A stretch of DNA of 64,000 bases from Heptranchias perlo (taxonomy: Eukaryota): NCBI RefSeq assembly GCF_035084215.1, contig NC_090340.1:5456001-5520000 (forward strand), given 5' to 3'. The notes under the pieces were generated by a model. It did not search any database, was not told the DNA's origin, and worked only from the letters and a program-made list of their open reading frames with translations. The translations under genes were made by a program, and so were the position numbers. How positions within the stretch are numbered: position 1 is the stretch's first letter; each line of letters begins with the position of its first letter. This document shows positions 16,911-57,589 of the stretch, piece after piece.

Positions 16911-19900
16911 ACTAGGTTCGAATCCATTCATGACCTTGTCCTTCATTATATCTGGAACCTACTGCAAGTTTACAAGTCCTCCTCTCTGAAAAGAAAATTT
17001 CCATGTGTTTTGTTCACACTGTCTCCATTGTCGTTCGTGCCTTCAGCTATCTTAACGCCGTCTTAAGTACTCCTTATTTAGCTCGACGTCTTCTGTATTA
17101 AGTCTCTGTTAATCATGTTTTAGCCTTTCACATACATTGGGGTGGTTCCTGTCCCTTTTTACACATGCAATAGTGTTCTTTTGTCGACTCTGATTTTTTT
17201 TTTACATTTTAAATGTTTTAAAATACTGACTGACGATTACTTATGTGTCTCGTTGCATTTCCTCTACGTTTTATTCCTTTCTCAGTTGTGCGAGAGACCG
17301 TCTAGTTTCATTAATATTTCTAAATGATGTCACACTTTGTAAATTGTTATGTAACAAGTTCACGTATCAAATCTGAGAACTTTAAATTAATAAAACAAAG
17401 TCCTGAGGGTAAAAAAACCTAACTTGTTTTGAAAGGTAGGTTATGAACAGGCTAATACTAGTATTATAAACACAGCAAGATATATTACTTGCAGGCACAC
17501 GTGACTTAATATGATTCTTTGCAAACAACCCTAAGCTTTTAGTTTTGTCTTTATCGTAAAATACAACGAAGGACAGCAACCGATGGTTGTGTAATGCCAC
17601 TAAAATACCCGGACTACAGAAACCACCTGAACAGCAGCTTGTTGTGCAACACGCCCTATTAAACCGAGCATGAAAGGAAATTGAAACATTCAGAGGTCAC
17701 CTCAGGCCAACAACTGCAAAAAGGAGTTTCGCAATTTCACACGTTTACACATGCCGAATTTGACAAGATAAACATTACAACAGGTTGCCTGTGAATTCAA
17801 GTATATTGAATTAGATCCGTACGTTTTAACTTTATGGAACGTAAAGGTAAGAATGTTTTATGTTAGCTAGAAAACTATGTAGCACAATATGTAATTTTGA
17901 GGCTAAGATACACGATGATGTACGGGAAGTTTATTGAAACAAGGGCACTTTAGAGTTGAAAGGACACGATTGGACTGGGTGTAGATGGAAGAACGTCCTC
18001 AATGACCGAAAATGTGGTCCGTTAGAAGGACTATTTTGCTTATTCAGGAATTACACTTTAGTTCTCCCCAATTCCGGGCAGGCGTCTGGGAAGCACGTAA
18101 AAATTGTAAGCGGTACATGTTCTTGTTCGCTGGAGAAGTGGGAAGGTTTTCTTTCATTAGGAAGACGTGAGCGCCCGGGAGACTGGGGTATATCACTGTG
18201 GAGCGAAAGTTTTAAAAGGAAAAAATCAGGTGACAGAATGAAAGCCACACCAAAAAAAAAAGATTAGCTGGTATTTCAATGTTGCTGTGGGCAAATTGGC
18301 TGCAGTGATTGTCAGTATGATTACAGCATCGAACTTCAGTAAGTAATAGACTGACGGTAAATTCCATGAAAAAGCATTATATCAGTTTTCTCTCCCTCTC
18401 GTTTCATCTGTCCTCTATGAACCTAGAAATAATAATTATAAATCAAAATAACCATGAAAGCTTAGCCACTGGAATATTCAAGTCAGAAGGCAGCAATGTG
18501 TTTTAATGGCGAAGGGGCGAAGGTGGGAGCAGACACCTGCATATATAGTAAAAGATTTAAATAATGTAGTTGTGAAAGGCATTAGTTTGTGATATGTGTG
18601 AGTGAGTGGAGTTCAAAATACATGTGCTAGACTTGCTAGGATTTAGCAAATGAAACTAAGTGACGACTTCCCGCTAACTATTAACACCAAACAAGATGAT
18701 TATAAATCATCGCTCAAACCAGCCCAGCAGTGGAAATCACCGAAAACAATACGATAGCCTCTGAAAATAATGAGCTACACAAAGTCATAAAGACTCAGCA
18801 TTCTACACTAATTTGAGACATAGATGTTACTCGCTGCACTAGTTTAAGATTTGAAAGTTTCAACCTTCATAAACGAAAAGATTTCGGGCAATGAACCAAC
18901 TGAGAAGTCACGTGAACAGAAGCAGCTCATCGAGTCCAGAAAACAGATTTGAGAATAAGCTGATTTTTATAACTGTTTATGGAGCAGAGTTCCAACCATC
19001 TAAAGTAAATTATCATCGGGGTATTAACTAAAAGACATTTGAGTTGCACTACATCGTTTTAGTACCGTTACTGATTGTGTTTTATTCTGAATCCCTATCA
19101 CTATGTCGTGTACTATCATATTGGTTTAACGTATTGGCAATACATTCCACAGCGGTTCTCCCGATCTCCTGGGAAATGAAGAATAATGGACAACCAGTAG
19201 CGGTACCTCCTAATGCCGAAACTAACGAGGCTTTGTTATATGAAGGGAAACATTTCAACCGTATAAATGAGTCGAAATAGCGCTCAGACATGAAGCTCAA
19301 TAACCAGATTCATAAGGGAAGTAAATATCCTATCACTTTAAATTTCTGATTTTAGCTGGATATTAAGCTAGCCTTGGGACCTTTCTTCCTCTAACTAAAT
19401 TATATATATTTGTTAATGCTTCTTGTTGGTGAAACGGCCCACGCTGCAACATATCGCTCACAGCAATTTTCAACAAGGAAGTTATTATAAAGTAAGTGAA
19501 AACATTTTCTGATTGGAATCAGTGCATGGCCTATGCTAATAAACATTGGAGTTTGCATGATTGCAGCACAATATTTCCACAGGTTTCACATCATTTTAGT
19601 ATTCATTTGAAGTTGCCAGTCTAAGAGTTTGAATTGTGAATATTGAAGAGTTTCGGGAGATATTGGAAACATTCTGCAGTCGCTTGCTCTTCCACCCAGG
19701 GAAAACCTGAAACGCGCTTTGGAGTGGAATTCCACGGGTTTTCTCCCTATCTGCCGCCGGAACTTCGGGAGAAACTCTGGAATTCCAGACGATTCGCTAT
19801 TTTGATAACTTGCACTTGTACCACATCACGAGTCAGGAGGCCGATCACTGGGAGTTTCAGTTGGAGCTGGTGCCATCGGAGTTATTCCACAGGCCGTGAC

Positions 19901-21098
19901 ACACACGTTCCCTCGTCGACGGAGCATTGTGCCCACTCCCTTGCACAGATGCAAAACTACACTCGCTGCGGGCTAATTTTACTTTAAGATTGAATCCTTT
20001 CCGCACAATATTAAAAAAACCTAAATATCACTTAGTGGAAACAAACAGGTTAATACTTTTGTAAAACTGCAGATTGCGGACTTATAGATAAACGGACTAA
20101 GGTATCTTAACTGCTCTTATATTAAAACGTAGTTCCACGTCATAAGTTTATTTAGTGCCAAAAATATTTTACCGCTATTTTAGACACAGCCTTGCGTCTT
20201 CTTGGCCTTATCCTGCAGGTGGAGGGCATTTCACACTGTTGTCATCAGTGTGCAAAGGAGGCAGTTCGGAACCGGACTGACGTCTAATACTGTCACTTTA
20301 GCACTGAATCTGATGTGCCTCTAGCCGCCAAGTGCAAAATAAAATGACTTATATTCTTAGACCAAATGTTGCACACGCGGTAAAAAAAATCCCGTTCTGT
20401 TATACACTGCAGAGGAGATTAAGATTGTGAAGAAACCACTGCTATAGAATAAACAGACGGCAAGGAGCATGCGTCCACTCTTGGGAAAATTATAAATCAA
20501 GGCTATAGCGAGGAACCAATAGGATTATTGCAACAATAACATAATTTTAAAAATAGCCACCATTAAGGGGGCAAATATTAATACATCATAACCTTACCCA
20601 ACAAAAGAATCCCATGAAGCAACTAGTTCCCTTAACCCAACAGTAAACAAAATATCATCAGAAAATTATTTCGAGGTTCGATACGGTTATTACATCTGCT
20701 ATCGCAATACCTTCTCTCTCACAATCAAGTCATGCTATCAAGCCACGTAATGGTGGCTATATCCACCAATCCTTTGGATTTCATCGTTTCCAAGTTCTGT
20801 TTCATGCACAGAACTAGCAAGATAAACAAGCCGTTTATTGTGATCCTCTCCAGAAAAAAACAATAGACCATCTAATAGATTCTTCAGAATGAATTAGTTC
20901 AAAAATTACTGAAGGCCTGCAATATTCGCCCTTCGTGGCGAGTGCAGAAACCATGAACCATGGACGTGTTAGCTCATGTACAATTTTATTCAGCTCCCCT
21001 TTTTTGTTATAAATGCAGCCTACTAATTCCTGTTCCCGTGTCTGCTCATAGCCAAACCCGCAGATCTTAATCTAAAGCCCATGCTTTTCTCCACTCCG

Positions 21099-21167
21099 CA
21101 ATTAAACAGTCATGTGATATCTGACCTCACAGATAAGCATGAGATTTTACTAGACACACAGCCGCCC
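21099..21167 (+). promoter_or_regulatory. Conserved proximal promoter block of receptor gene copy 1
   Basis: The 26-bp CAATTAAACAGTCATGTGATATCTGA is identical at 50739-50764 and contains an E-box (TCATGTGA). ACACAGCCGCCC (GC box) is also shared. The block lies about 70-135 bp upstream of the ATG. Confidence 0.6.
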
Positions 21168-21235
21168 GTTCCCCAAACTTTCAAGCATTCCATTCTCATT
21201 CGCAGCGTGTGATCTACCGTAATTCATCGCTCGAT

Positions 21236-21290
21236 ATGTTTCTGAGTGGAGCTCTTTTGGGCATGTGTTTCCTGGGCATTTTCAATCGAG
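21236..21290 (+). CDS. Copy 1 exon 1, signal peptide (MFLSGALLGMCFLGIFNR)
   Basis: ATG plus a hydrophobic 18 aa, with phase-1 donor G|GTAGAT conserved in copy 2. Too short for the ORF track. Confidence 0.8.
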
Positions 21291-24200
21291 GTAGATTTCT
21301 ATTTTTTTTTGTTATAAATTAACCTTTCACAAACTTTCCTGAACAAGATACAACACATGAAGTCGATCTTATAGTTGATATAAAATGGAGCAATGTTTTG
21401 GTGCTTTAATTTGATGTAATTTTAGCATGTGATGTGATTGTCAGACGGAAACAATTGGACGAACAAAGTGATGTTATTCATGTTAATTCAGCCAGGAAAC
21501 ACTTTCAGGAACTGGAGAATCATTCTAATAGTTAGGAACATAGAATTATTAATTTACCAATGAACTCGACGCACGTTATTATTTTGGTCGTGCAGATCAC
21601 TTCCCTATATATGAATTATTTAACCTGAGTGCGCATCTTTTGTTGATAGTTACTGTGGACATTTCGGGCAAGGTGATGCCAGGCATTGTACAAAAGACGG
21701 CGCTCAGAGGTACAAAGGTTACCTTCCGATGTCCTTTCCCCTTCGATCTCGATCATTCAAACATAATCCTTTACTGGTGGAGAGATGGTAATAAGACCTT
21801 CCTACAAGAAGACAGCAGAAAACAGTTCATTGTAAAGAAAGGCGGTGCCTACCTTCACCTCCTGAATGTGAGTGTCCCGGACGCCGGAACGTATTTCTAT
21901 GTAGCCAAATATCAGGATAAAACGGTTGTAAAAGGAACTGGTGTGCAACTTGTTGTATATGGTAAGTGTCGCTGGAATTGGACAGGTGAAGCGTTTAGTC
22001 GCGCTGAAGCTGTGGTTGATATTCAAACCGCGTTTAGCAAAGAATTTCAACATGAAAATGTCCTATTAATAAAAAGGTACAGCTTTCTACTTGTTCATAA
22101 AAATACGGAAACATTCCCAGTTCAAGAATCTCTGAAGAATGTGACGACTGACGCATGACATGAATTGTGATTTAATTTTGTGTTTATGAAGGAAAGTCAT
22201 CTCGAGGCTGAAGGCTAAGGCGCTTTTTCAATTATTGCACCCACTGCCTAAAAGAATAGTATTGATATTATTCGCAGTGTTATGCTTAAAGGCCCAATAC
22301 CTTATTTGGAAAGAACAGGGAAATTCCCATTCCAGTCATTTAGACGGCGCGCTTCCAGTTTCTGCCATGCAGGTAAAGTTCCTGAACAGCCGTTCGGCAG
22401 AACTAGTGAAATGCACCCGTTAAAGTAAGTGCCGCCGTCCAGCCACAGGTTCGAAGTCGATCCGCTCCGCACATAAGATGAAAATGTTCTTCATGTAACA
22501 ACAGAAGGCGTCCTGTACAGCAGTTCAACTATATCAGGTCGATTCGAACAGATTGGTATGAAAAAGCACAGCCTCGCTGTTGCAAATCTGTGTTGTTAAA
22601 TCTAACGGTGATGCGTCATTACAACAGGAGCGGAACTCGGAAAATAACGTGTGGAGAATCAATGGAGAAAAATCTAGATTGGGCTCCAGTCAGGATCAAT
22701 AATTATCATCGATACAACTACGATGCCACGAAACAACTGTTGATTATTTTATGAAAACGGATAGGATAGAGAATAAGTGTAGAAAATATTTTGCTTCATC
22801 TCTTTTTGCTCTTTTCCATTTAGTTGGCCCCGTTCCCCTGAAGATTGTCTCCACGGCATCCGAAGGGGCTTCATCTGCTTCTCTGCGGCTCCAGTGCAGA
22901 ACGGCTCCTTTTTACCCAAAGGATTTTAACCTCACCTGGCATAAAAATGGTACCGAAATTGTGACTGGATTTAGAACTGAACAACAGGCAAACACAGAGG
23001 GACTGTATGAAGTTATCAGCTCCTTACAAGAGATACGGCCAATCCAGCGCGGCACTGTTTATACCTGTCAAGTATATCACGTTTCAAACTCAATACCAGC
23101 AAATGTCAACTATACTGTTGGCAACGAAGGTAACATTATAGCATACTTGGTACTTTTATGTTGCCTGGTCACGCAGTAGTCGAATTTCCATTGCAGATAC
23201 TGTGGGATGCGTTTATTGTAATTGATTTGCATATTATTATGTCATCTTCGAAATCCACAAGCAGTTTAGAAATGTGCACAGCAATAATATAGCACGAATC
23301 ATGGGTCGGGAAGGATTCAACGTTCCAAAGTTAAATTAATGGAACACCGCTAATTAAAGTTTAAAGTCAGGCACAATATTAAAATGTATAGAGAGTTGAA
23401 AACAGCGGGCTGAGGCTACTGCGAAGAAGACTGTAAACAATTTCAAGAGGATGTAGGCAGCTCAGCAGATTTAGCAGAATCAACTCGGATGAAATTGCAT
23501 GCGTAAATATAAGAGGCGATATCGTTTGGTAGGATGAATGACAGCTCATACATGACAAATGGGGAAAAATAAATGAGTTAAATAGCTGAGCGATTCAGGG
23601 GTCGGGTCCATAAATATTTAAAAGTGTCAGGACAATAAAGCTGGGGAAAGTACCTTTTAGAAATCGGGACTTAGGGTTTAAAGGCAATGAGTTAACGCTA
23701 AACCGATACACATCGTCGGTTAGACTGTATTTAGAATATTGTGTTTATATTTGGGCAACTTACTGTGTGAATAATATTAAGAACATAGATAAAATATTTT
23801 TACTGAAGTAGTGTCAAGGATGCAGCATATCAGTTAAAAGGGGAAACAAAGAGATAAGGAGGGGCTTCATATCCTCGAATGGAGAAAGTTAAGAAGAGAT
23901 CTGCTTGAGATGTTCAAGACTTCGAAGGAGAAATGGAAAAAAAAATCTGATCAGTGAATCGGTTACCAGATGGCATACATTTAGGGTCATTACCAAAAGG
24001 AGGCAGGGAGCGGATATGGTTATTTTTTTTACCGACAACCATAGGAATTGTATGAAGTTCTCAGCTGCTTCCAGCAACCTGTAAAGAGCGGGATAGTTCA
24101 TACGTTTCTAGTTGCTCCTGATTCTCTCCCAATTCCAGCCAGTCTCAGCGACGCTGTTAACAACAAATGCAATGTTCAGACATACAGCACAATGAGAATG

Positions 24201-25605
24201 TCGCGGGTTTGGGAGGTGCTGTCAACGAAGAATTACCAAGATGCTGCAGTGCATCCTATGGATGGTACACACTGCAACCACAGTGCGCCGGTGGTGAAGT
24301 GAGTGAATGTTTAGGGTGGTGGATGAGGTGCCAATCAAGTGGGCTGCTTTGTCCTGGATGGTATCAAGCTTCTTGAGTGTTGTTGGAGCTCCACTCATCC
24401 AGGCAAGTGGAGAGTATTCCATCACACTCCTGACTTGTGACTTGTAGATGGTAGAAAGGCTTTGGGGAGTCACTCGGCGAGACACTCGCTGCAGAATACC
24501 GAGCCTCTGACCTGCATTATAGCCACAATATTTATGTGACTGGTCCAGTTAAGAGTCTGGTCAATGGTGAACCCCAGGATGTTGATGGCTGGGGATTCCA
24601 CGATGGTAATGCCGTTGAATGTCAAGGATTGGTGGTTAATCTCTCTCCTGTTGGAGATGGTCATTGTCTGGCGCGAATGTTACTTGCCACTGATCAGCCC
24701 AAGCCTGGACCCTGTCCAGGACTTGCTGTATGTGGGCACAGACTGCTTCATTATCTGAGTGGTTACAAATGGAACTGAACACTGTCCAATCATCAGTGAA
24801 CATCCCCATTTCTGATCTTATGTTGGAGGGAAGGTCATTGATGAAGCAGCTGAGGATGGTTGGACCCAGGACACTGCCCTGAGGAACTCCTGCAGCAATA
24901 TCCTGGGGCTGAGTTGATTGGCCTCCAACAACCACTAACATCTTCCTTTGCTGCAGTTGAAACAGAAAAGTCGCAGTGGCGACTGCTGTTTGAAATAGGA
25001 ACGCCGAAATACGGCATTAGAGGCAGCTGGACGCTTGGTCAGGGAAAACAGTGCAAGGAAATTCAAGAATGTTATGCTTTTCCAACCTGGTCAGATCCAG
25101 CACTAGTTCTATCCAAATTTAAGATCGCATTCCATTAATTGGCTGCGAATTTTTTTCCTCGCTCCTATAAATTCGCTTCGAAAGGTATCGTTTGATCATT
25201 GTATCTGGAGACTTTCTAATTATTTAAATGTTTTCTTTAGATTTTATTTATAGTATCGCTAAAAAACAAGAGAGGGAAAAAATATTTACAAATCTATCAC
25301 GATTTGATACAGTACTCAGAGGAATTCTTTACTCAGTGTGCTTTAACTTCAAAAGAAGATCCTGTGCGAGATTATATTGTATATCAAAGAAAGTATAAAC
25401 CGTCAAAGTTAAATTGTTTCGCATGTGTCCAGAAGAAAAAAATATAATCTTTTTGAAATGGTTTCTGGTTGTTTGCTGTACTTTTTTTCCAGATTACCAT
25501 TCTGTCCGCCCTGTCCACCTAATGTATCGATCCATAGTTGGGATATTGGTAATTATTCTACTAACGATGATCATCCTCAACCATGTTACATCAGATAACC
25601 TCTAA
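21236..25605 (+). CDS. Ig-superfamily receptor, copy 1 (leader-VJ-C1-TM, 261 aa); join(21236..21290,21650..21961,22824..23129,25493..25605)
   Basis: Four exons of 55+312+306+113 = 786 nt are joined by phase-1 GT-AG introns and stay in frame. Exon lengths are identical in the paralog at 50874-55691. The V domain lacks its second canonical Cys, so function is less certain than for copy 2. Confidence 0.88.
21650..21961 (+). CDS. Copy 1 exon 2, V-type Ig domain with germline J-like G strand
   Basis: Acceptor TGATAG; motifs VTFRC, LYWWR, LHLLNV, DAGTYFY and KGTGVQLVV; donor G|GTAAGT. Confidence 0.92.
22824..23129 (+). CDS. Copy 1 exon 3, C1-set Ig domain
   Basis: LQCRTAPFYPKDFNLTW...GLYEVISSL...YTCQVYH carries the C1 hallmarks FYP and YxCxVxH. 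Pyrimidine tract plus TAG acceptor; G|GTAACA donor. Confidence 0.93.
23385..24110 (+). mobile_element. Old, heavily degraded CR1 fragment in intron 3 of copy 1
   Basis: Residual similarity to the CR1 RT C-terminus (for example TTAGAATATTGTGTTTATATTTGG, about LEYCVxxW). Confidence 0.55.
24190..24955 (-). mobile_element. Family B LINE fragment in intron 3 of copy 1
   Basis: GVPQGSVLGPTILSCFINDLPS and MEYSPLAWMSGAPTTLKKLD; homologous to 5380-6493. Confidence 0.9.
25493..25605 (+). CDS. Copy 1 exon 4: stalk, transmembrane helix with Arg, short tail
   Basis: Acceptor TTTTTTTCCAG; DYHSVRPVHLMYRSIVGILVIILLTMIILNHVTSDNL*; a donor GTAAGA lies 2 nt after the stop. Confidence 0.88.
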
Positions 25606-25754
25606 ATGTAAGAGATTTTCAAAGCACAATTATAATCTTAAACAACATTTTTCAATTTATAACATAGAAGGAATGTGTGACATATGATTATCAATTCTAG
25701 CGATTACTATTCAGTAAACACAAAATGACGACATAATGAGACATGCCTTGTATC

Positions 25755-28700
25755 CGTAGGATCATACAGCGCAGAAGGAGGCCATTCCAACCAACGATCC
25801 TTTTTCGGTACTTTGATAGAACTATGCAATTAGTCCCACTCTCCTGGTCTTTCTCCATAGCCCTGCATTTTTTTTCTTTTTCAATTATTTATTCAATTCC
25901 CTTTTGAAAGTTAATAATGAGTATGTTTCCACCGCCCTTGTAGGCAATGCAGTCCAGATAAAAGAAAACGCACTGTGTAAAGAAAAAACTCATCATTCCC
26001 TCTGGTTCTCGAGCCTCGCCATATAACTGAAGTCCCCCGTACCTGGTATAAGTTTAGTCAATCTCTTCTGCACTCTCTGCAAGGCATTGACATTCTTCCT
26101 AACGTGTGGTGCCCAGAATTGGACACAATACTCCAGGTTTAGCCTCACCAGTGATTGATAAATGCTTTGTATATCTCCAAAAATCCGTTATGCTTCATTT
26201 ATGCCATACCAATTTCTGTATTAAATTTCAGCTGGAAGTTATTCCTGTTTTTCAGTTATTCTGCATATAACACTTACCAGTCCTGGATTCGATACCAAAT
26301 TGTAATTCACTTCACGGGGTATACCACTAGGCTCCTCCTTCTCCGTGCGGTTCCAAAATCCCTTGATTCCCTTACAGTACAAAATCTATCGATCTCAGCT
26401 TTGAATGTGCGAATCGACTCAACAGCCAAAGCCCTCGGCGGTAGAGAATTCCAAAGATTCACAACCATCTGAGTAAAGAAATTCCTCCTCATCTCAGACT
26501 TAAATGGCTGACCCCTTATCCTGAGACTATGCTTCCTATATCTAGACTGTCCAGCAAGGGAAAACAGCCTTTCAACATCTACCCTATCAAATCCTCTAAG
26601 AATTTTATGCATTTCAATGTGATCACCTCTCATTCTTCTAAACTCCAGAGAATTTTACTCAATCTCGCCTCATACGAAAACCCTCTGATCACAGGGATCA
26701 ATCTAGTGAAACTACATTGTACCGCTTCTAAAGCAGATATATCGTTCCTTAGGTAAGGACACCAAACCCGTACACAGTAATCCAGGTTTGGTCTCATCAA
26801 AGCCCTGGACAATTGTAGCAAGACTTTTTTACGCTTGTACTCCAACCCCATTGCAATAAAGGCCAACGTACCATTTGACTTCCTAATTACTTGCTGTACC
26901 TATATGTGAACGTTTTGTGTTTCGTGTGCAAGGACACACAAATCTCTCTGAACACCAACATTTAATAGTTTCTCACCATTTAATAACATTCTGTTTTTCT
27001 ATTCTTCCTACATAAGTGAATAAACTCAATCTCCCCACATTACACTCCATCTATCACATTCTTACCAAATCACTTAATCTGTCTATATCACTTTTCAGAA
27101 TCTTTGTGTCATCCTCACAGCTTACTTTCCCACCTAACTTTGTATCGTGGATGCGAGGTGTATCGAGGAAACTATTCTTCCGTCAGTTGCTGGATATATT
27201 GCTCGATTGGTGAAGGGGCCTGAGATTGACCGACTAAGTCGACCGTGTTTTTGTAATAAAATAGTGTTGGTTCAATATTTTTCATTGCTTACTTTCCTGT
27301 TCCAAACTTTTCAAACGTTTTTTCTTACATAATTACAAATTTCTTGACAGCTGTGCTCAGAATTTCGCAGATTCTGCATTTTTCTTCCATGGGCTTTACA
27401 CCTTCAGGGCCATATACAAACGATATGGAATTTTAGGATAGAAAGTTCCACACATTTGACAGGAGACCCCCTTGCAATAAAGTCCAACATACCATTTGCC
27501 TTCCCAATTGCTTGCTGTACCTGCATGTTAACTTTCCGTGCTTCGCATACATGGACGCCCGACTCTTTCTCAACACCAATATTTAATAGTTTCTCACCAT
27601 TTAAAAAACATATTTTGTTTTTCCATTCTTCCTACCAAAGGAATAACCTCGCATTTCCGCATGTTATACTCCATCTGCCACCTTCTTGCCCACTTACTTA
27701 ACCTCACTATTTCCCTTTGCAGATTCTTTGTGTCCTCCTCACGGCTTGCTTTCCCACCTAGCTTTTTATCGTCAACAAACTTGGATAAATTATACTCGGT
27801 CCATTCATTTGAATCATTAATATAGATTGTAAATAGCTGAGGCACAACACTGATCTTTGCTGCTCCCCACTATTTACAGCCTGCCCATCAGAAATTGACC
27901 CGTTTATTCCTACTCTATCTTTTCTGACAATTAACCAATCCTCCATTCATGCTAATATATTACGCATAACTCCATGAACCCTTATCTTGTGTAACAATCT
28001 TTTGTATGTCAGCTTATTAAATGCCTTCTGAAAATTCAAATAGGCGAAATCCACTCGTTCCCATTTATCTACCCTGCTAGTTAAATTCACAAATAAGTCA
28101 TAGATTTTTTCATAAAACCATGTTTGACTCTGTCTAATCATATTATGATTTTCTAAGTGCCCTGTTACCACTCCCTTAATAATGGATTCCAGAATTTTCC
28201 AGACGACTGATGTCAGGCCAACTGGCCTGAATTTCCCTGTTTTCTCTCTCCCTCTTTTCTTGACTAGCGGTGCTGCATTTCCTATCTTACAATCCGCTGG
28301 GTCCGTTCTCGAATCTAGAGAATTTTCGAAGATCACAACTAATGTGTGTAACATCTCTGCAGCCACCTCTTTTAGAACCCTAAGATGTAGGACATAATGT
28401 CCAGGAGATTTGTCGTCATTTTGTCCCATTAATTTCTCCAGTACCTTTCATTTACTAATATTAACTACTTTAAGTTCCTCACTCTCATTAGATCATTGGT
28501 TCCCCATAATTTCTGGTATGATTTTGTGTCTTCGATTGCGAAGACAGATACTAAATATTTGTTTAACATCTCTGTCATTGCCTTATTCTCCATCATAATT
28601 TCTCCTGTCTCAGCCACTAAGGGACCCACGTCTACTTTCGCTACTCTCTTCCCTTTTACATACTTGTAGAAGCTCTTACAATCTGTTTCATATTTCTTGC
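25755..28700 (-). mobile_element. Cluster of CR1 fragments (about 25755-26155, 26330-27145, 27465-28700)
   Basis: RT and C-terminal motifs RNFFTQMVVNLWNSLP, LDYCVRVW, SKFVDDKKLGG and FRPVGLTSVV. Confidence 0.85.
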
Positions 28701-29335
28701 ACGTTTACGAGAGCATGACAGCGAGTGATCTCCGGTGGACTGTGAAGCTCATCGTGAAAGAGTACAGTTCACTGAGATTACAAAAAGTAAATTTCATTAA
28801 CGGTTGAATTTATTCCTTGAATATGGGATGGACTTTTGTTACCTTGATACAATTGCCATTACTGATGAAGTATCATAAATTGTGGCCCCTAGTTTCCGTG
28901 GCAACGATTTTATTCCTGATTTCTCTCCAACCCCGGTGCAAGTTCCAACAAAACCGCGCACACGCGGTTTACACCGATGCTCTTCAGTTCTGCCGTCTCC
29001 TCTCAAATTTGGGTCCGGCTTTCAGAAGAACTGCCCGACATTTTAGGACCTTTCTATCCTGAAATTCCAAATCCTTTGTACACTGCTGTGAATGTGTAAA
29101 AGTCTGTCGAAGAATAATGCGGTATCTGGGAGATTCACCACAGCTATCAATATTTTTTTTAATTAGACAAGACAAAACGTTTGAAAAGTTGGAACAGGAA
29201 AGTAAGCAATGAAAATAATGACCTAACTCTATTTTGTTAAAAAATCACGGTCAATTAAGTCGGAAAAACTCAGGTCCCCTTCACCAATCTAGCAATAAAT
29301 CTGGCAATTAACGGTGGAATCGTTTCCTCGATACA
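27159..29335. repeat. Inverted repeat pair with arms of about 300 bp (about 27159-27456 and 29039-29335)
   Basis: TGTATCGAGGAAAC...CATTGCTTACTTTCCTGTTCCAA...AGGATAGAAAG is matched in reverse complement by CTTTCTATCCT...TTGGAACAGGAAAGTAAGCAATG...GTTTCCTCGATACA. The arms have diverged. Confidence 0.85.
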
Positions 29336-29504
29336 GAGGGGATTTAAATGCTAATGAATGTCACTTCAATCAGACCAGACGAATTATTTTTGAATGATTA
29401 TATCAATACACTTGGCAGGTGAACATCATTGGCTCAGGCAATGAATCGTAGTTTGGTGTTAAGGTTTGATATATGTAACTTACAAAAGGATTGTTTATTT
29501 CCAG

Positions 29505-29613
29505 ACGATTTGATGCTGATGAAAACCACGGCTTAGAATACTCCAAGAGTTAACATGAAAAGGCAATTTCTCAGCAACGAAGAGAATCACAATATTTGAA
29601 CGTGACCGGTTAG
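29505..29613 (+). pseudogene. Candidate vestigial cytoplasmic-tail exon with tyrosine motifs
   Basis: Acceptor TTTATTTCCAG. The phase-2 frame reads RFDADENHGLEYSKS*HEKAISQQRRESQYLNVTG*. AATAAA follows at 29821 and 29887. Confidence 0.5.
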
Positions 29614-31049
29614 GATGGATCCTCGAAACGGCCGCAATCCCTTATAACTTGAATCGGATCATGTAATGGACGTCAATGTTGGAGTAAATCTGGTCTGTAT
29701 GTTGTTAAAAAAGTGACCGCCAGTAACAGTCCGCCAGCATATGAAAATGTTCCTCAATTTTATTGAAAAAGCTTCAGAAAGGGTTTTCTGGTTGCTATGT
29801 TTCAACACACTTTACATTTAAATAAACTGACTACTACTGTCAGGCCTACACTGAAATGTATGTGGCGACAGCATTAATTTAATTGAAATAAAATGATCCA
29901 ATGCTTGGTTATACAATAAGCGGCAGATTGAATATTTCAGAGAAATTTGAAAAGTACAGTTGCAGATTATTTCTTGTGCGAAGTTTAATCGTAAATGGGA
30001 TAACTCGGAATAGGTTTATCAAATTTCCCAATATGTATAAAAGTAAAAAGCCAAGATCTATTCATTGGACTTCACAAGACGAGTGCACATCGTTTTATAG
30101 AAGGTCTTCTTGTCGTTGCCACCATTTACAGAGACGAGTGGCCTACGGTTTGGGAAGCACAGCTGCTCTATATGCAAATGGGGAAATATTGGATTTGCCG
30201 TTGATGGTAAAGGTGCAGATTAGTTGAATACGCCGATGTATGCCTGGCTAAGACAGTTTTACAAATAGGCACATTGTACAAATAGCCGAATTTTTGAATG
30301 CGGAAACTACTTCAATTGTCATTCATTATGGTCAACATGCAGTGCTGTGTGAAAATTCAAACTGGATCTGTGTGCCATAATCATAGATACAAAATGGTCA
30401 TGCCTAGCAAAAAACAATATTTGTTTGTGTCCTGTGTTGTGTGGATTGATCAGGATTGAAAAATGGAGGTTAGGCGTGAAAAGGTGAAAAGATGAAATTG
30501 GGAGCAACATTTTTCATTGCCCAATGTCTCGTCAGTAGACCATGAAAGTACATTCTGATCGTACCAAGATAGTAGGGCTATCATGAAATTAGATTTGATT
30601 AGTATAACCTGATCTGTCACACTGCCTGCCGATGTTACCGTGCACGTTAGGCACTCATTTCCTCTCCTTTGAGTCCAGCGAACGGTAAGTTCTTGGACAC
30701 AACAGGCATGAATAATGGTTCAGACTTGGGTGTGAGTATGATTTTGGGTGATAATGTAAAACGGACGACATCATGGAGAGGAACATGTGGAGAGATGTGT
30801 AACGTGCGGCTGAATCGATATCGCCCGATTTACACTATCAACTCCTTCAGTGGCAAAATGCTGACTTGGACGTTTTGGAAGAGGGTAACCTGGGCATCGC
30901 TTAAGTCTCACGAGGACAGGTTGCATAAACTTGCTTTGTATTGGTGTGAGTTTAAACGTTGAGGGCTTATTTAATTGATGCGTTTAAAATCATGAAGGGA
31001 TTCAATAGGGTAGATACTGATAAGTTATTTCCTCTGGTGGGGTTTGTTG

Positions 31050-33185
31050 ACCTCCTTCCTTCTATGGTTCACCATAACCGCTTCGAGTAAGTTCGAGACA
31101 CTTGATAGTTGAATAATCGGAACAGACTGTGGATTGTGTATACAGTATAGGCTTGAGATGCTCTTCCGACAGTTGGGTCAAGGACATTATCTTCTTCTTT
31201 ACCCAGCAACAAAGGGTTAACATGATAATCAATAACAGGATCTGTAAACTCACGATGCAAACGATGGGGTGCAAAACATTATTTGAAACTCCAGGCTAAC
31301 GCAGTCAAACCGAGCAACGACTACCACTGTGGCTGCTTAATATCATGTTCTATTCTCCTTTGGATCAACCGTATCTGATCTAAGTCGTCTTTAGTTTCCA
31401 AATGAGACTTCCAATCAATATCATTTAACTTATCCAATTCCTTCTTCACATGCTCAATATCTGTTAATTGGCTTGATATTTAGTCCCATATCCGCATTAA
31501 TAATCGAATAGTAATAATCCCCTACAGTCTTATTCCAATTAAAGCATTGTGCAACAGAGAACGAGGAACACTCACATATGCATATCGAACATAGCGTGCA
31601 CAAAACAATACATATGGTATAGTCTGACAATCGATCATATCGATGGCTACATTATAACACTTGGTTCTGAAGTATAACAGTCTATGTTCAGCATAAAATA
31701 ACATGGGCCTCACTCGTTTCCGCAAATGGGTTACAGTCACCCGAGTTACGTCCTCCCTTGTAGGCTGAATGGTTGGAAAGCATATCCATTTAAAGTAATT
31801 ATCCAGGCAACTTGTCACATGATACTGTGAAAAACTGCCTGTTGTGGTAGCAATGTCTGATCCCCAGCCTTTTTGGTCCGTAAAAATGTATCGGAAACCC
31901 CGTATTATCAGTCCTACATCAACGTATGGTTATAGCATTTCTTGGGTACCACACTGTGGAATTCACCAGAATTTTTATTTCCGTGCACAATCAGAACTGT
32001 AGAACACAGGAGGGTGAATTATCAATCGCAAACTGGCTAACGTTACTAGAGAGTTGACTCCGAACACAATAGGGTAGGCGAATGCTTGTGGTCTGTTGTA
32101 GCAACATTTTGTAGCTATCCATGATAACTTGTGTACCGAGACAGACGACAACCCAAGATACCTGCTTAGAAGGGTTAAAGAATTCGGAGTCAATGATCTC
32201 CATATTTTCCCATAAACCCTGTGATTCAGTCATTGACATGTTTACAAGCTCATGAGCCATGTCTGATTCAGCCCGGGGGGCACCTTTAATAGAGTAGACA
32301 ATTGCTCGTAGATCTTTACTCAAAGCTTGTAGTTGTTTCGCTAGGACCTCATTACTCATAGCATTAAGCGATGCCGTTCCCAGTCCTACTCCGGTCGCTA
32401 GGGTGTCCAGAAGATCACGTTTTACCCTAATTTGAACGCTGGATAAGGAATGTGAACAATTAACACACTTCCATGACACATCAAACAAAGAAATGGATAA
32501 GAAGCATGCACTATTTTCCAACACATAACTTGATACAATATACGATTCAGGTGGAGCAACGAAAAAATAAGACCTGACCTGATTTGGGCCACGCACATGT
32601 CGCGCGATGGCATTGTTGTACCACTTCCCGGTACAGCAGTAGTGTAGGTATCCACATTAGGGCAGCGCAAAGGGTTCACACTTATGGAGCCGACATCCTT
32701 TTACCTGCTGTTCCACACAGCATGTCAGGACAGTGGAAGTGTTACACATAACCTCCCAATATTGCCTGTGCACGTATGTGAAGTAAATACAGATATTCAC
32801 GGCAATATTCCACTGTTGGTTGAAAAATGTGTACGCGTCAGAGGTTTTATTATCATGCCACCACGCAGTGAGCAATACAATGAGGATGGTTCCATCATCA
32901 GCCAGTCACCAGACCACACCACATGGAGCCGGGCCCTTTTTGTGAACGATCTCATAATGGACATTTATTGTAACCAATCATAATAACCCCTACATTCCTC
33001 AGTGTACAGCTGAATAGACCGTACATGGGACAGTCTTCTTCGTATACGTATCAAGCCTGAATCGTTAATTAATTTACACCATTAGCATCCTGGCCTAAAT
33101 ACAACAGTAAGATAACACTCTCCTCGCATTTCCTTTTTGAAAGGATCTTGAGCCTGCCGTCCACAACTGATCTGTTGATTGTCAA
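31050..33185 (-). pseudogene. env: Orphan endogenous retroviral envelope (class I fusion protein), disrupted
   Basis: Furin site RVKR (32417-32428), then the fusion-peptide-like DLLDTLATGVGLGTASLNAM and a heptad (EVLAKQLQALSKDL). A Cys-rich ectodomain follows, then a second heptad (HVKKELDKL...IRLIQRRIEHD), W*SLLG and the TM LHPIVCIVSLQILLLIIMLTLCCWVKKK. Several frameshifts and stops. Confidence 0.85.
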
Positions 33186-33224
33186 AACATCTCACCGAGC
33201 CATTATACCAATGCAAAGTCTAAT

Positions 33225-33325
33225 TTCCCACTCCAGAGACTTGAGCACATAATCTCGGCTGACACTCCAGAGGAGTACTGAGGGAATGCTGCACTGTCCG
33301 AGGTGCCGTCTTTCTGGATGAGACA
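33225..33325 (+). mobile_element. Deu-domain SINE fragment (AmnSINE1/SacSINE1-like)
   Basis: GACTTGAGCACATAATC...AGTACTGAGGGAATGCTGCACTGTCCGAGGTGCCGTCTTTCTGGATGAGAC resembles the DeuSINE core. Recognised from memory, not aligned. Confidence 0.65.
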
Positions 33326-33327
33326 CA

Positions 33328-34738: not shown

Positions 34739-34904
34739 ATTTTAAATGTGCGATAATGTAAATCGGGCGATATCGTACGGCCCGCCGGTCAGAAACCTAA
34801 CTGGATTTCCTTTTCCATTGAAGTCAATGATAGGAAAATGCGACGAGGTGTACAGCAGGTGACCGATCCCATATCGCATGATTTACATTATCACTAAAGT
34901 TAAA
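34739..34904. mobile_element. Palindromic MITE-like element; paralogous copy at about 59419-59581
   Basis: GATAATGTAAATC (34752-34764) and GATTTACATTATC (34880-34892) are perfect inverted repeats around a CATTGAAGTCAATG centre. Confidence 0.7.
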
Positions 34905-34944
34905 ATCATCCGATGATCGGCAGAAACCCTAGAAAGTTGGTGTT

Positions 34945-50873: not shown

Positions 50874-50928
50874 ATGTTTATGAGTGGGTCACTTTGGCGC
50901 ATATATTTCCTGGGCATTTTCTATCCTG
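50874..50928 (+). CDS. Copy 2 exon 1, signal peptide (MFMSGSLWRIYFLGIFYP)
   Basis: Homologous to 21236-21290; donor G|GTAGAT. Confidence 0.8.
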
Positions 50929-53900
50929 GTAGATTTTTATTTTTATTCTAATATATTAATCGTTGCTGAGCAAGACACCACACTTGAAATTGATCTAATA
51001 GTTGACGTGCAGTCGGATATTGCTTTTTGCTGGTTTAATTTGATTTAATTTTTTGAAGTCATGTGTCTCTTGCCGCATGTAAAATCTAGATGAGAACGCT
51101 AATGTTATTTATGGTAATTGAATGGGGAAACACATTTTGGATCTGGAGAATAATTATGATAGTTAGTTAATTCCTAATGTACCCATGGACTGGATGCGCG
51201 ATAATATTTTGGTGGTGCATATCATCTTTCGCATATATTAATTACTTAATCAGTGTGTCTCCTTTTTTGATAGTTGCTGTGGACACTTCGGGCAAGGTAA
51301 CTCCGGGTATTGTACAAAAGAAGGCGCTCAGAGGTACAAACCTTATGTTGCAATGCCCTTTCCCTTTCGACCTCGATCATTCAAACGTAAATGTTTACTG
51401 GTTTAGAAAGGATAGCGAAACCCTCCTGCAAGATGATAGCAGAAAACAGTTTCACATAAAGAAAGGCGGCGCCTACCTTCACCTCCTGAATGTGACCGTC
51501 CTGGACTCCGGAATTTATCAGTGTGTAGCCAAAGATAAGGATCGAACGGTTGGAAAAGGAACTTTTGTACAAGTTGTTGTATATGGTAAGTGTCGGTGGA
51601 ACTGGAATCGGGAAGAGTTTATTTGGTGTCGATATTCATACTACGTTTAACAAGGAATTTCAATAAGAAAATGCCTTGTCTATAAAACAGTACAGCTTTC
51701 ATAATTGTTTATAACGACACGTGTTCAAAAATAAAGAAACTTTCCCAGTTCCAGAGTCTCTGAAAAAATGTGAAAAATGACCGAAATCTCCAATTGTGAT
51801 TAAATGTTATGTTTATCAAGGAAAGTAAATTCAAGGCTGGGAACCAAAACGCTTCTTTTCAATTTTAGCACTAAGGCCCAGTGTCTTATTTGGACATTTA
51901 TACGGTGCGCTTCCAGTTTCTGCGATCCAGATACAATTCCTGGATCGCTGTTCGGTGGAACTGGCAAGACGCATACCATAAAGCTGGTCCCGTAGTCCAG
52001 ATGGAGGGTCCGAAATCGCTCCTTTCATGTCCAGATGGAGAAAAAGTTGTCCATGTAACCACAGAACGCGACCTGTACTGTTGCAGCAGTTTAATAACAG
52101 AATGCCGATTCGAACACATTGATACGAATAAAAAGAGACCTAATATTCGAAATAAATGCTGTTAAATATAACAATGATACGCCAGTACCGTAGAAGAGAA
52201 AGTTCGGGAAATAACGTCTCTAGATGGATTTAAGAATATTACAGAGAGTTACGTAGAATGTACAGCACAGAAACAGACCATTCGGCCGAACAGCTCCATG
52301 CCGGTGTTTATGCTGCACATGAGCCTCCTCCCTCCCTACTTTATCTACTCCTATCAGCATATTATTTTAATCTGTTCTCCCTTGTGTGTTTATCTAGCTT
52401 CCCCTTAAATGCATCTACGTTCGTAACCTTACCTATTCCTTTTAGTGGTGATGTCCACATTGTAACCACTCTCTGGATAAACATGTTTCTCCTGAATTGC
52501 CATTTGGATTTATTAATGACTATATGATATTTATGGCACCTAGTTCTGGTCTCAACCTTAAAGACCTCTATCGAATCACTCCTTAATCTTCTATTTTCAG
52601 AAGAAAAGAGCGCCAGCTTGCTCAATCTATCCCGATAGGTATAACCTCTCAGTTCTGTTATAGTCCTAGTAAATATTTTTAAACGTTCTCTAGTGCCTCT
52701 ATATACTTTTTATAATATGGAGACCAGAACTGTTCACAGTACTCCAAGTGCGGCGTAAACAAAGTTCTATACAAGTTTAACATAACTTCTCTGTTTTTCA
52801 ATTCTATCTCTCGAGAAATGAACCCCTGAGCTTGGGTTGCTATTGCTATGGCCTTATTAACCTGAATCGCTACTTTTTATTGATTTGTGTATCTGTACCC
52901 CCAGGTCCCTCAGCTCCTCAACCCCATTTAGATTCTTGCTGTTCAAGCAGTATGTGCCCCCTTATTCTTCCTACCCAAATATAATACTTCACACTTATCT
53001 ATATTTATATTCATTCCCCCAATTACACACTTATTCTGCCAGTTTATTAATGTTCTCCTGCATTTTGACGCAGTTCTCCTCTGTATTGACCATACCTCCC
53101 AATTTGGTGTCATCCGCAAATTTTAAAATTGTACCCGTGACACGTTCCCTGGATTTGTTCTATCTGCCTTTTTTAAAGATAGGAATCACATTAACTGTCC
53201 ACCAGTCCTCTTGAACAAATCACTTTTCTATTGAATTTTTAAACATATGTAATAGTGCCTCTGCTATCTGTTCCCTAACTTATTTTAATATGCGTGGATG
53301 CAATCCATCCAGACCAGGGGATTTACCCTTTGTAGGTTTGATTAGTTTATCAATTATCTCCCCCCATTCTATCTTAAATGTCTTCATATCCTTTTTGGTC
53401 TCTTGTTCTAATGCCATGCCCGCCACATTAGTCTCCCCGGTAAACACCGAGGCAACATAATTATTTAATATTTGTGGCACTTCACTTTCATTACCTGTGA
53501 GGTTTTCGTTTGTATCCCTTAGTGGCCTTATCCCTATCATGGTTTTTCTTTTGTTATTTACGTATGTGTAGAATACTTTACAATTTCTTTTTATATTCTT
53601 TGATAATTTAATTTCATAGTTTATCTTTGCCTTCCTAATTGTTTTCCTTAAACTCTTTCCTACCCTTTTTGTATACCCCTTTGTCATCCTCTCCTTTGTT
53701 GTTGGTGTGCTTAGTGTATGCCGTTTTCTTAGTTTCAACGTTGCCCTTATTTATTTATTCATCCATGGTGTATCAATACTTGTAAGTTTGAGCTTGCTTT
53801 TTCGTGGGATATATTTCTCTTGGACGCTTTTGGTCACCGTTAGAAATGTTTCCCACTGCTGTTCTAGTTATTTGTTTATTAGTAAGCTTTTCCAATTTAT

Positions 53901-55691
53901 TTTTCCTAGTGTCATTCTCATCCCTTGAAAATCAGCACTTTTTCCAATTTATTCCTTTGTTTTTTCTCTTACTTTTATCGTTCTCAATCTTTACCTTAAA
54001 TCTTATTATGTTGTGATTGATATTGCCTAGATATTGCCCGATGCTTACGTTTCCTATCTGTTCTGTTTCATTTCCCATTACGAGATCCAGCAGTGCTTCC
54101 TCCTTTGTTAGGCTTTTTACCTAGTGGATAAGAAAGGAGTCCTACAAATATTGTAAAAACTCAATTCCCTCTACACTTTTACCTACCTCATGGCAGATTA
54201 TTAGGGGATAGTTGAAATCTCCCATGATTATTATTCTACATAAATATAAGATAATAATTAAGAAATCCAATAGGGAATTCCAGGGAAACTCCTTTACTCA
54301 TTTTACATCTTTCCTTACACATTTCGTCCTCCAACTCCTTTCCACTATTAGGTGGTTTGTAGTATATGCCTGTTAGAGTGATCGATTCCTTCTTATCTTT
54401 CATTTCAATCCTTATGGATTCTGCTTCTATCCTTGCATATAACAGTAATATGCCAATAGTGTAGAAGACGAAGTTCGGGAAATGATTTCTGTAGATACAG
54501 TGAATAAAATTTAGTTTAGGCTACATTCAAGATAAATAATGATTGTCCGTACAACTACAATGCCCGGACGCAGGCACCGGTTAATTTTTGAGAAAAAAAT
54601 AGCAGACCATATACGGGTCAAATATTCTTCTTTATCTATTTTTGCTCGTTTCCGTTTAGCTGTCCCCGTTCCCTTGAAGATTGTCTCCACACCACCCGAA
54701 CGGACTTCATCTGCTTCTCTAAGACTCCAATGCAGAACAGCTCCTTTTTATCCGAAGGACTTTAACCTCACCTGGCATGAAAATGGTACCGAAATTGTGA
54801 CAGGAATTGAAACTGAACAACAGGCAAAGACAGAGGGACTGTTTGAAGTTATCAGCTACTTAGAAGTGACAGACCCAATCGAACGCGGCACTGTTTACAC
54901 CTGTCAAGTGTATCACGATTCAATCTCAATTCCAGCAAATGCCAACTACACCGTTGCTAACGACGGTAATATTATAGAACACGTGGTTCTTTTATCGATT
55001 TCAGAGATTCATTACCCAGTAATCGAGTTTCCATCAGAGATAATGGGTACAATCAAAAATATGTGGAAAGTGTTTACTGCAGTTGTTTGCATATCATTCT
55101 GTCACTTCCGAAGTCCAGTTTTACTTCAGCTCCCATGTGATGATTCCCATTCCGTTGGGCATTAGGATCTGATGAGGAATAAGTTGGTCGCAAGCAGTTT
55201 AGGTAATAGTGGACGCCAGTCCACATCGTAGTTTCCATAATTCACTCCATAACTAGCATAATAAGCAAGGAAAATAATGAGATAAATTAACACAGCGATA
55301 GATTGGACAGAAGAACCAAGTGATAATAAATAACATTAAATGCAAAATCCTATTCCATACTAAATCCTAGTCACACATCATCCCTGACGTCGCTGACCTA
55401 CATTGACTTCCAGTCCTCCAATGCCTCAATTTTTAAAAAATCATCTTCGTAATCAAAGCCCTGGATGGCCTCACCCCTCAATATCTCTATTTCTCTTTCC
55501 TGAAGAAACAATATCACCAGATTGATATGGTCTCAGGTTATGAGCTATGCATCATTGATTACCTTTTACCTTTTCCAGATTATCGCTCTGCCCTCCCCGT
55601 CCACCTGATTTATCGATCCACAGTGGGGGTACTGGTAATTATTCTACTAATGATGATCATCTTCAACCATGTTTCATCAGATAACATCTAA
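50874..55691 (+). CDS. Ig-superfamily receptor, copy 2 (leader-VJ-C1-TM, 261 aa), apparently intact; join(50874..50928,51274..51585,54660..54965,55579..55691)
   Basis: Exons of 55+312+306+113 nt, all joined by phase-1 GT-AG introns, in an open frame. All four canonical Ig Cys and both core Trp are present. Confidence 0.92.
51274..51585 (+). CDS. Copy 2 exon 2, VJ-type V domain
   Basis: LMLQC, VYWFRK, DSGIYQC and VGKGTFVQVVV (GxGT motif); TAG acceptor and GTAAGT donor. Confidence 0.93.
52240..54436 (-). mobile_element. CR1 LINE inserted in the V-C intron of copy 2
   Basis: GKSPGLDGLHPRILK and RRNMFIQRVVTMW motifs, with an APE GDFNYP remnant near 54210. Absent from the copy 1 intron. Confidence 0.85.
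54660..54965 (+). CDS. Copy 2 exon 3, C1-set Ig domain
   Basis: LQCRTAPFYPKDFNLTW...YTCQVYH; TTTAG acceptor and G|GTAATA donor. Confidence 0.93.
55579..55691 (+). CDS. Copy 2 exon 4: stalk, TM with Arg, short tail
   Basis: Acceptor CTTTTCCAG; DYRSALPVHLIYRSTVGVLVIILLMMIIFNHVSSDNI*; donor AG|GTAAGA 2 nt after the stop. Not in the ORF track. Confidence 0.88.
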
Positions 55692-57589
55692 AGGTAAGAA
55701 CATTTTAAAAAAATTATAATCATGAACAGCATTTTTTCAATTTATAACATGGAAGGAATATGTGACATTTTATTTCTCAATTCAAGAGATTATTACCTGA
55801 TAAACACACAATAATGAAATACGATGACAAAATCCAGGCTGTGCTATTAGGGCCGCAGTGTAATGCTGCCTTAACGGTACGTAAAATCGGCTTTTACTTT
55901 GCCCTCAGATTCATGGCCTTACCAGCATCCATTAAAGAGACAAGCTGTGCACGACTTGTTAGCAGTCGGTTCTGCGCCATTTATGCCATCCTATGTTCTC
56001 TATTAAATTATAGCCTGTATCTTATTTTTATTTTCAGTTATTCTATATCTAACCAATTCCAATGCCAGAATTAGATATCCGTTTGTGATTCACTTCAGGA
56101 TACACAATGGACCTAAAATTCCGTTGGATTACCACCAGCTTCTCGCGGGGGAACGGTGCAATTGCCATAAAAATTGCATACATTCAGAAAACGACCATTT
56201 GCACCGTTTCTGCGTGCTTCAACAGTGAACAGGTACAGGAGCAACAGTTGAACAACTACTGCGGTAGGAGCTCCTCCAAAAATGAGCACTTCGATACGTC
56301 ACTTCTGTACTTTGGCAAAAAGACAATCGTTGATGAGAAGATACAGAACCTCGACACATCATTCGACACATTACTCGTTGTGATAACAGCTCAACGCAGC
56401 ACCTGTTACCGCAACGATCGACACCATACTTCTAGACGGCTGCCTTGATGTTTAATGTAGGTTGTCTGTGCTACTTGCTTTTGCTTTACGTCTGCTTGTA
56501 GGAATCGGGTAGACAGTCCACGTATTAATTGAATTGCTTCATGCTTATGTGCACGTTTTTTTTAAATCATTAAATAATCGCTTTGATTAATGTACCTATT
56601 GTGTAAGCGTGCATTTCTTTGCGTGGGTTATTGTCCAGGTCCACGAATCTCAGGGAAAGACCCAAATTTCCCTACACAGTTCTGGTCTCCATATTATAAA
56701 AAAAAAGTGTATAGTGGCACTGGAGGAGTTTTAAAAAGATTTACTAGGATGATACAAGATATCAGTTCGCCGATTCGGGGTATCATTCCTTTTCTGTTCT
56801 TTGCCTTTAAAAAATCTGGGTAATCTATCAGTGTTACCTACCCCAATAAAATTAATGGCTGGTTTATCTATTCTAACCCTTGGCTCAACTAATTTAAATG
56901 CTCCCAAAAGGCTACCTCAAAATTCTCGGATATCTGTGCATCACGAAGTTAAGATGGAGGCCATCTCTCCGAAAAAGCTTATCCTGCCGCTGAAAAAATC
57001 CCCAGTTTTCTATAATTGTATGTTTCTCCCTTTTACAGAGATCGCCGAGCTACAGGTTGAGTCCGATGATTCAGCGGTTCCTTTCGGCAGCATTGGAAGA
57101 AAGTTAGGCGTGAAAAGATTAAAGGATGTAATGAGTATAACATTTACCATCGGCCAAAATCTGGTCACTAATCCATGAAAGGAAGTTATGCTCTTGAGCC
57201 AAAATTGTAGGGCTTCATGAAATTGAATTTGATTAGCCTTATCTCCTTGGTCACACTGCCTGTCGATGATACCGTAAGTTCCCATTCCTCTCCTTTGAGC
57301 CCAGCGAACAGTAAGCACGTTGGCGCAACAGTCAAAAATAAGGGTTAAAACATTTTGGGAGCAATATTAACTGTGGGTGATAATGTAAAACCTGAATATC
57401 ATTGAAATGAAATTGAGAAGAATTGAATAAAGAGCGCCAAAATCGAAACGGCTCGTTTTACATAATCAACCAAACTCAAAATTACTTCCGTTAATTCGGG
57501 TCTGCGCCCACATTTCGATGCGCACGGCTCCCGTTCTGTTGCTACTTGGATGATTTGGGAGAGGACAACCTGGCCATGGCGAGGCCTCA

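Follow-up and report, generated by a model that had tools for sequence, protein, structure and literature searches.

Two genes lying in tandem in a 64,000-nucleotide stretch of Heptranchias perlo DNA (the window) are probably activating members of a paired-receptor family of cartilaginous fish, and a transmembrane (TM) arginine, Arg237, is predicted to pair with an ITAM adaptor, for which FcR-gamma or CD3-zeta is the likeliest candidate. An initial annotation of this DNA had proposed adaptor-coupled activating receptors, and the proposal went some way towards being borne out. Coupling of this kind is likely because Arg237 falls within a predicted membrane helix and because, across the branches of the family, a recurring arginine-bearing TM module goes with short tails whereas uncharged relatives with similar ectodomains carry ITIM-like tails.

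Two tandem genes and their surroundings

When the window was compared with itself, two alike blocks were seen about 30 kb apart amid LINE-type repeats, and a motif scan returned only two sites, HLMYRSIVGILVIILL from position 25516 (copy 1) and HLIYRSTVGVLVIILL from 55602 (copy 2), both on the + strand. Splice signals give each gene four coding exons (leader, V, C1 and TM) separated by introns that are all phase-1. The two products, 261 amino acids each, are identical at 188 of 261 positions (72%), and a homology search revealed that they match two Heptranchias perlo RefSeq proteins letter for letter: XP_067853503, named ‘uncharacterized’, for copy 1 and XP_067853505, named ‘NCR3 ligand 1-like’, for copy 2. 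For the pair, dN/dS was 0.58 in the V domain, 0.36 in C1 and 0.54 in the TM exon, all below 1 in what is a single comparison.

Contigs from three runs of one sample (X1-X3, presumed to be RNA) were aligned to 20900-35500, a region that covers copy 1 only. In X1 and X2, contigs link the leader with V, V with C1, C1 with TM (23129/25493) and TM with a 3' exon (25607/29505), each at GT..AG, and the TM exon was recovered with 0 other letters in contigs of two of the three runs; none of copy 1's exon joints was seen among the contigs of X3, which has no bearing on expression. The two copies are thus a real, spliced gene pair, with splicing confirmed for copy 1. The span 25493-25605 opens with base 1 of a phase-1 exon, preceded by the acceptor ttttttccag, and closes with the stop codon; a GT donor follows at 25608. 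Since a GT donor lies two bases past the TAA in both copies, an extra coding exon had to be excluded. The joint from 25607 to 29505 places the stop of copy 1 before the last junction seen, so that the exon at 29505 is untranslated, and a tblastn search downstream with the tails of relatives found no coding tail exon of the catshark type. Behind copy 2, no homologue of the untranslated exon of copy 1 was found.

Table 1 Exons of the two genes, in window positions
Feature	Position	Strand	Basis
Copy 1 exon 1, leader; hydrophobic sequence predicted to be a signal peptide	21236..21290	+	Run X2 contigs splice it to V
Copy 1 exon 2, V-set and J-like GTG in one exon	21650..21961	+	PF07686, 9e-06; contig with 0 other letters
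Copy 1 exon 3, C1-set domain	22824..23129	+	PF07654, 1.8e-11; spliced contigs
Copy 1 exon 4, stalk DYHSVRP, predicted TM with Arg237 (25528-25530), 8-residue tail, TAA at 25603-25605	25493..25607	+	Motif scan; spliced contigs
Copy 1 exon 5, 3' untranslated, end approximate; AATAAA at 29821 and 29887	29505..29892	+	Joint 25607 to 29505, GT..AG, in X1 and X2
Copy 2 exon 1, leader	50874..50928	+	Matches XP_067853505
Copy 2 exon 2, V-set with the canonical Cys46 and Cys102	51274..51585	+	PF07686, 3.3e-08
Copy 2 exon 3, C1-set domain	54660..54965	+	PF07654, 4.8e-14
Copy 2 exon 4, stalk, predicted TM with Arg237 (55614-55616), 8-residue tail, TAA, then GT donor	55579..55693	+	Motif scan; splice signals

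If the coding frame of copy 1 is followed past its stop, the exon at 29505-29760 reads LEYSKS-stop, which resembles the end of the catshark isoform P0007 (LEYSES-stop), a likeness matched in score by 22 of 3000 random windows. The same interval holds SQYLNV and PAYENV between stops, and is possibly a decayed tail with tyrosine motifs. Remnants of the family, V-like and C1-like but degenerate, lie at 18119-18223 and 24009-24182, the latter inside intron 3 of copy 1. Non-coding blocks, too, are conserved between the copies (30469-31016 with 57103-57696 and 33806-34926 with 58549-59604, 67-69% identical), and one such block has, near 30660-30690, a short acceptor-donor-like stretch at which no splice joint is listed. 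On the minus strand, a 221-aa open stretch at 31994-32656, in which RVKR is followed by a hydrophobic segment, looks env/fusion-like by eye and has no meaningful Pfam match; three adjoining open stretches of 158-177 aa at 1976-3769, with no Pfam family above the cut-off, are possibly a mobile element; and a 795-aa LINE-type endonuclease/reverse transcriptase frame (PF00078, 2.8e-34) at 61615-63999 is open to the window end. No marker gene of MHC or antigen-receptor linkage was recognised within the 64-kb window.

Ectodomain, predicted membrane helix and tail

Pfam identified a V-set and a C1-set domain in both products. The V exon includes a J-like motif, G114-x-G116 in copy 1 and G112-x-G114 with Phe116 in copy 2, and GxG recurs in 60 of the 70 rows of the family alignment. 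In copy 1, the F-strand cysteine is replaced by Tyr102 (TAT at 21895-21897, against TGT in copy 2), which leaves Cys46 unpaired. The contigs carry the same Tyr102 letters; the cysteine is kept in 68 of the 70 rows, and copy 1 alone has tyrosine among those covering the position. Without its V-domain disulfide, copy 1 may be impaired.

A sequence-profile search of the PDB placed Ig heavy chains, UrIg2 and SIRP-alpha/gamma nearest to these proteins. By fold, B7-H6 (Z 15.1, rmsd 3.0, 182 aligned) shared the top place with other B7/BTN/MHC chains; the top Foldseek rows were ICOS-L, and the ESM Atlas returned generic V-C1 clusters only. Neither the profile nor the fold matches fix the orthology of the two genes. 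The matches to B7-H6 and ICOS-L, together with automatic names that include ‘NCR3 ligand 1-like’, speak for a different view of these proteins, in which they do not signal, being B7-H6/butyrophilin-like ligands or decoys that compete with ITIM-bearing relatives, and in which the arginine is merely the outer membrane boundary. We consider this unlikely.

In copy 1 the best 19-residue hydropathy window (239-257, 2.54) omits Arg237, as a boundary residue would lead one to expect, with windows that include it narrowly lower at 2.46; in copy 2 the best 19-residue window includes it. The best 21-residue window, 232-252, includes Arg237 in both copies, as does the single helix at 232-259 that AlphaFold predicted from a 70-row alignment (mean pLDDT 88, and 80-96 over 231-250), in which Arg237 is the sixth residue. 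This agrees with the initial annotation, which had placed an arginine near the outer TM end in both copies and had left the boundaries to prediction. In the arginine class of the family described below, just 16 uncharged residues follow the arginine, where the uncharged core of the 62 ‘other’ rows has a median length of 22, and the five residues before the arginine are apolar, with a Kyte-Doolittle mean of +1.82 that compares with -0.54 in the matching stretch of ‘other’ rows, so that a helix of normal length must contain the arginine. Arg237 is predicted to lie inside the membrane helix, near its outer end, and the fixed 16-residue spacing and the apolar residues before it exceed the needs of a boundary residue, which argues against non-signalling ligands or decoys.

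The arginine codon is CGA in both copies. Past the hydrophobic stretch there are eight residues, NHVTSDNL and NHVSSDNI in the two copies, which are Tyr-free as previously stated, while the length given then, about nine, was slightly too high. The stalk, about 10 residues long, begins its exon with DYH in one copy and DYR in the other, and no cysteine occurs between Cys204 of the C1 F-strand and the C terminus of either product, as had also been claimed. The two proteins therefore offer no candidate stalk cysteine for a TCR-type disulfide, which is not a family trait: catshark relatives (Scyliorhinus P0005, P0009 and P0010, with catshark proteins reading GCHFVLPVHLIYR) carry a cysteine at the Tyr226 position, and the Heterodontus relatives P0003 and P0011 have DC there. 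Moreover, tails of 26-51 residues are found in catshark and bamboo shark relatives, one of them ending in the ITIM-like VGYDAL. In the sequences compared, then, neither the missing stalk cysteine nor the very short tail is common to all close relatives, and the earlier suggestion that these receptors are not disulfide-linked dimers holds for the stalks of the two window copies and does not extend to relatives in catshark and horn shark. When the copy 2 ectodomain was modelled as a homodimer, with the alignment not used, the score was 0.00, which is evidence neither way.

With a VJ domain in one exon, followed by C1, an arginine-bearing TM and a minimal tail, the proteins look like antigen-receptor chains. 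The frequent GxG and the presence of UrIg2 among the top PDB profile matches point the same way, and from these features the two genes might be taken for germline chains of TCR type, forming dimers and assembling with CD3. We regard this as very improbable: the stalk is short and without cysteine, the commonest form of the family has an ITIM-like tail of its own, and no lysine stands five residues past the arginine, where TCR-alpha/delta TM segments have one. TCR chains have split V/J segments, a stalk cysteine, and arginine plus lysine in the TM; the window genes, with VJ in one exon, no stalk cysteine and no TM lysine, were not placed among them.

The V-C1 family and the spread of its arginine module

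Among 61 profile-search matches at E<=1e-30, the named species were all sharks, rays and chimaeras bar a weakly matching salmon protein whose architecture differs, one or two of the rows having no visible species. The family set comprised 133 parsed rows, 94 of them with a TM and 83 after removal of near-copies; left out were 39 rows scored as ‘no TM’ (partial models and some real TM proteins under threshold) and six without a parsed C1. Fifteen of the 83 rows belong to a TM class of the form R-x16-[D/E/N/V]-H, whose tails have a median length of 14 residues, and 62 to a mostly uncharged ‘other’ class with a median tail of 84.5 residues, bearing in mind that short tails in automatic gene models can be model truncations. 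Two or more ITIM-like motifs were found in none of the 15 module rows and in 32 of the 62 ‘other’ rows (Fisher p=2e-4, a value that overstates independence, the rows being automatic gene models of sequences related to one another), and one such motif in two of the module rows. Six further rows have an arginine in a different TM and no ITIM-like motif, and there is no central Lys-type TM class among the 83. Although the module class was picked by its R, spacing and H, positions that were not picked are conserved as well (Ile+15 in 15/15, Leu+6 and Leu+11 in 14/15, Ile-2 in 12/15), and by this measure the arginine module is homologous across the rows, not merely pattern-picked.

Judged by its sequences, the family has a paired-receptor organisation, in which related ectodomains are joined either to a charged TM and short tail or to a neutral TM and ITIM tail. 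The same organisation is described for the Xenopus XFLs (PMC2413239) and for bird CHIR/TILR (PMC3601082) in the parts of these papers available. The split between the two kinds is not clean: P0012 combines a TM arginine with a tail ending in ITIM-like VGYDAL, and P0024, left out as ‘no TM’, has YR and a long tyrosine-bearing tail, so that both look bifunctional. In P0038, a relative from H. perlo, the module has glutamine in place of arginine, a substitution that favours proteins that do not signal.

Automatic names scatter the family among SIRP-like, tapasin-like and B7-H6-like proteins. The window contains two tandem genes and two remnants, matches within one species nearly all list the same longest contig, and the other H. 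perlo relatives looked up have nearby accession numbers, those of the ITIM-type relatives flanking both genes on either side. This suggests that family members may form one cluster within a species.

A quick IQ-TREE tree built from 69 ectodomains puts the arginine module on at least six separate branches. On this tree the module needs eight changes, at least six of which are forced by strongly supported branches. The clade that contains the window genes (SH-aLRT 100) holds five module rows, three other-Arg rows and two neutral ITIM rows; for P0177, in this clade, ectodomain identity is 67-68%, and ectodomain pairs with differing TM types reach 82-91% identity. As the Callorhinchus protein P0185 carries the module, the module is older than the chimaera-elasmobranch split. 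That it has been kept in sharks and in a chimaera, and on several branches of the ectodomain tree, again argues against a mere boundary residue in ligands or decoys, as do the close pairs P0011/P0003 and P0186/P0037, in each of which a glycine close to the start of the TM is exchanged for arginine and the tail is shorter.

Outer-end arginines and shorter tails also occur with neutral-type TM exons, in P0003/P0011, P0037/P0186, P0052/P0198, P0033, P0101, P0004 and P0180. These are scattered over the tree and form a second route to a TM arginine, as if activating forms had arisen repeatedly from inhibitory ones through an outer-end arginine in a neutral-type exon.

Candidate adaptors and relation to known receptors

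According to the available parts of two papers, the FcR-gamma-docking TM type is marked by NxxR, a DYT start and an acidic C-end (PMC6557307), and FcR-gamma partners have an arginine near the N-terminal end of the TM, NxxR, and TM and tail in one exon (PMC2413239). In the window genes, the arginine is near the N-terminal end within the helix predicted by hydropathy and AlphaFold, and in copy 1 the short tail is contained in the TM exon, spliced contigs placing the stop in exon 4. The exon starts DYH and DYR have DY but not Thr, and the +17 position is Asn in both window copies and D/E in 10 of the 15 module rows. The Asn of NxxR, three residues before the arginine, is absent, being Leu in both copies and Asn in only 1 of 15 module rows, a deviation that counts in favour both of non-signalling proteins and of signalling through another adaptor. 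On these comparisons the arginine TM would work like the NxxR type, without being filed as a member of it.

The available text of PMC6514059 describes a TM arginine in NKp46 and NKp30 with CD3-zeta/FcR-gamma, which confirms the precedent invoked by the initial annotation, and a lysine in NKp44 with DAP12. Receptors of the NxxR type are often surface-expressed without FcR-gamma (PMC6557307, available part), as is Xenopus XFL1.7 (PMC2413239, available part), and reaching the surface without an adaptor would therefore not disprove the adaptor model. CD3 chains are reported in sharks (PMC6795676, in the part available); no sequence or report of a shark FcR-gamma was found in the literature searched, and the one file searched of the elephant shark genome supplement gave no match for SIRP, FCER1G, DAP12 or CD247. 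A profile of the TM module built from six sequences returned chance matches only against the PDB (best E 0.38), with no immune receptor among them.

It is conceivable, but rather improbable, that the receptors activate through DAP12, DAP10 or a shark-specific chain, the mammalian Arg-versus-Lys rule not being transferable. Zebrafish Nitr9 has a TM arginine, yet prefers Dap12, and in NKG2D and Nitr9 the arginine is paired with DAP10 or Dap12, which lends weight to another adaptor here. With no central Lys-type TM class among the 83 rows, any DAP12 coupling in the family would have to use the arginine. However, a sixth-place arginine in the predicted helix 232-259 corresponds to the position in FcR-gamma partners (PMC2413239), and the DY exon start and the acidic C-end of relatives fit the FcR-gamma TM type (PMC6557307), as far as the available parts of both sources go. 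We therefore retain adaptor-coupled activation, which we judge quite likely from the sequences, with FcR-gamma or CD3-zeta, by analogy, as its somewhat probable partner. In such receptors, Arg237 would pair with the TM aspartate of the adaptor; ligand binding by the V domain would cluster the receptor, upon which the adaptor ITAM would be phosphorylated and a Syk-family kinase recruited. ITIM-bearing relatives would counteract the signal on similar ligands, and recombination within a tandem cluster may have moved the arginine TM exon between ectodomains.

The NxxR-type FcR-gamma partners (LILRA, GPVI, OSCAR, FcalphaR, NKp46 and Xenopus XFL TM1) share with this family an N-terminal TM arginine, a DY exon start, a short tail in the TM exon, an acidic C-end (in most relatives here) and ITIM-bearing counterparts (PMC6557307, PMC2413239, available parts). 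Unlike them, the window genes lack Asn at -3 and have a VJ plus C1 ectodomain, not one of C2/FcR type. The distance from DY to the arginine also seems longer than in mammalian NxxR receptors. SIRPs are similar in having a VJ-type V followed by C1 and activating members paired with inhibitory ones, the top of the PDB profile list includes SIRP-alpha and SIRP-gamma, and many relatives are automatically named SIRP-like. However, the SIRP ectodomain is V-C1-C1, whereas here a single C1 exon is spliced straight to the TM exon, and SIRP-beta1 has a central lysine for DAP12, in contrast to the outer arginine and absence of TM lysine seen here. B7-H6 (NCR3LG1) and tapasin-like V-C1 proteins share the extended V-C1 fold, but not the J-like GxG, the multigene paired organisation or the charged TM without a tail. 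In non-rearranging VJ-C1 genes (PRARP, UrIg/UrIg2), the VJ domain is likewise in one exon, with a C1 as in UrIg; non-avian PRARP also carries C1. UrIg, a secreted protein, contains three C1 domains and UrIg2 nine (PMC12227049, available part), unlike the single C1 and membrane anchor of the present genes. NKp30/NCR3 has a TM arginine (PMC6514059, available part), but no C1. The MDIR family was considered and rejected, since MDIRs are CD300/TREM/pIgR-like in the available part of PMC3031540 and these genes carry C1.

The literature searched, whose coverage of the likeliest sources is incomplete, yielded no description of this V-C1 family, and the cluster is not described in the parts seen of PMC12227049, PMC10751288, PMC11599192, PMC13262535 and PMC3031540. 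The signalling principle is known; the family and its TM variant appear undescribed. Since pairing of a TM arginine with an ITAM adaptor is a textbook mechanism, the arginine alone would be ordinary. What is added is a large family of sharks, rays and chimaeras with activating- and inhibitory-type forms on antigen-receptor-like VJ-C1 ectodomains, which touches on the innate activating receptors of cartilaginous fish and on the germline precursors of Ig and TCR, and which supplies named genes and one testable residue, Arg237. More tentatively, cartilaginous fish may carry an expanded, undescribed cluster of VJ-C1 paired receptors in which the R-x16-DH exon is their form of the LILRA/GPVI/NKp46 FcR-gamma-docking TM exon, repeatedly shuffled onto new ectodomains. 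If this were true, the module would date to the jawed-vertebrate ancestor, sharks would have a candidate KIR/LILR-like receptor system, and a VJ-C1 chain would be wired to an ITAM adaptor without rearrangement.
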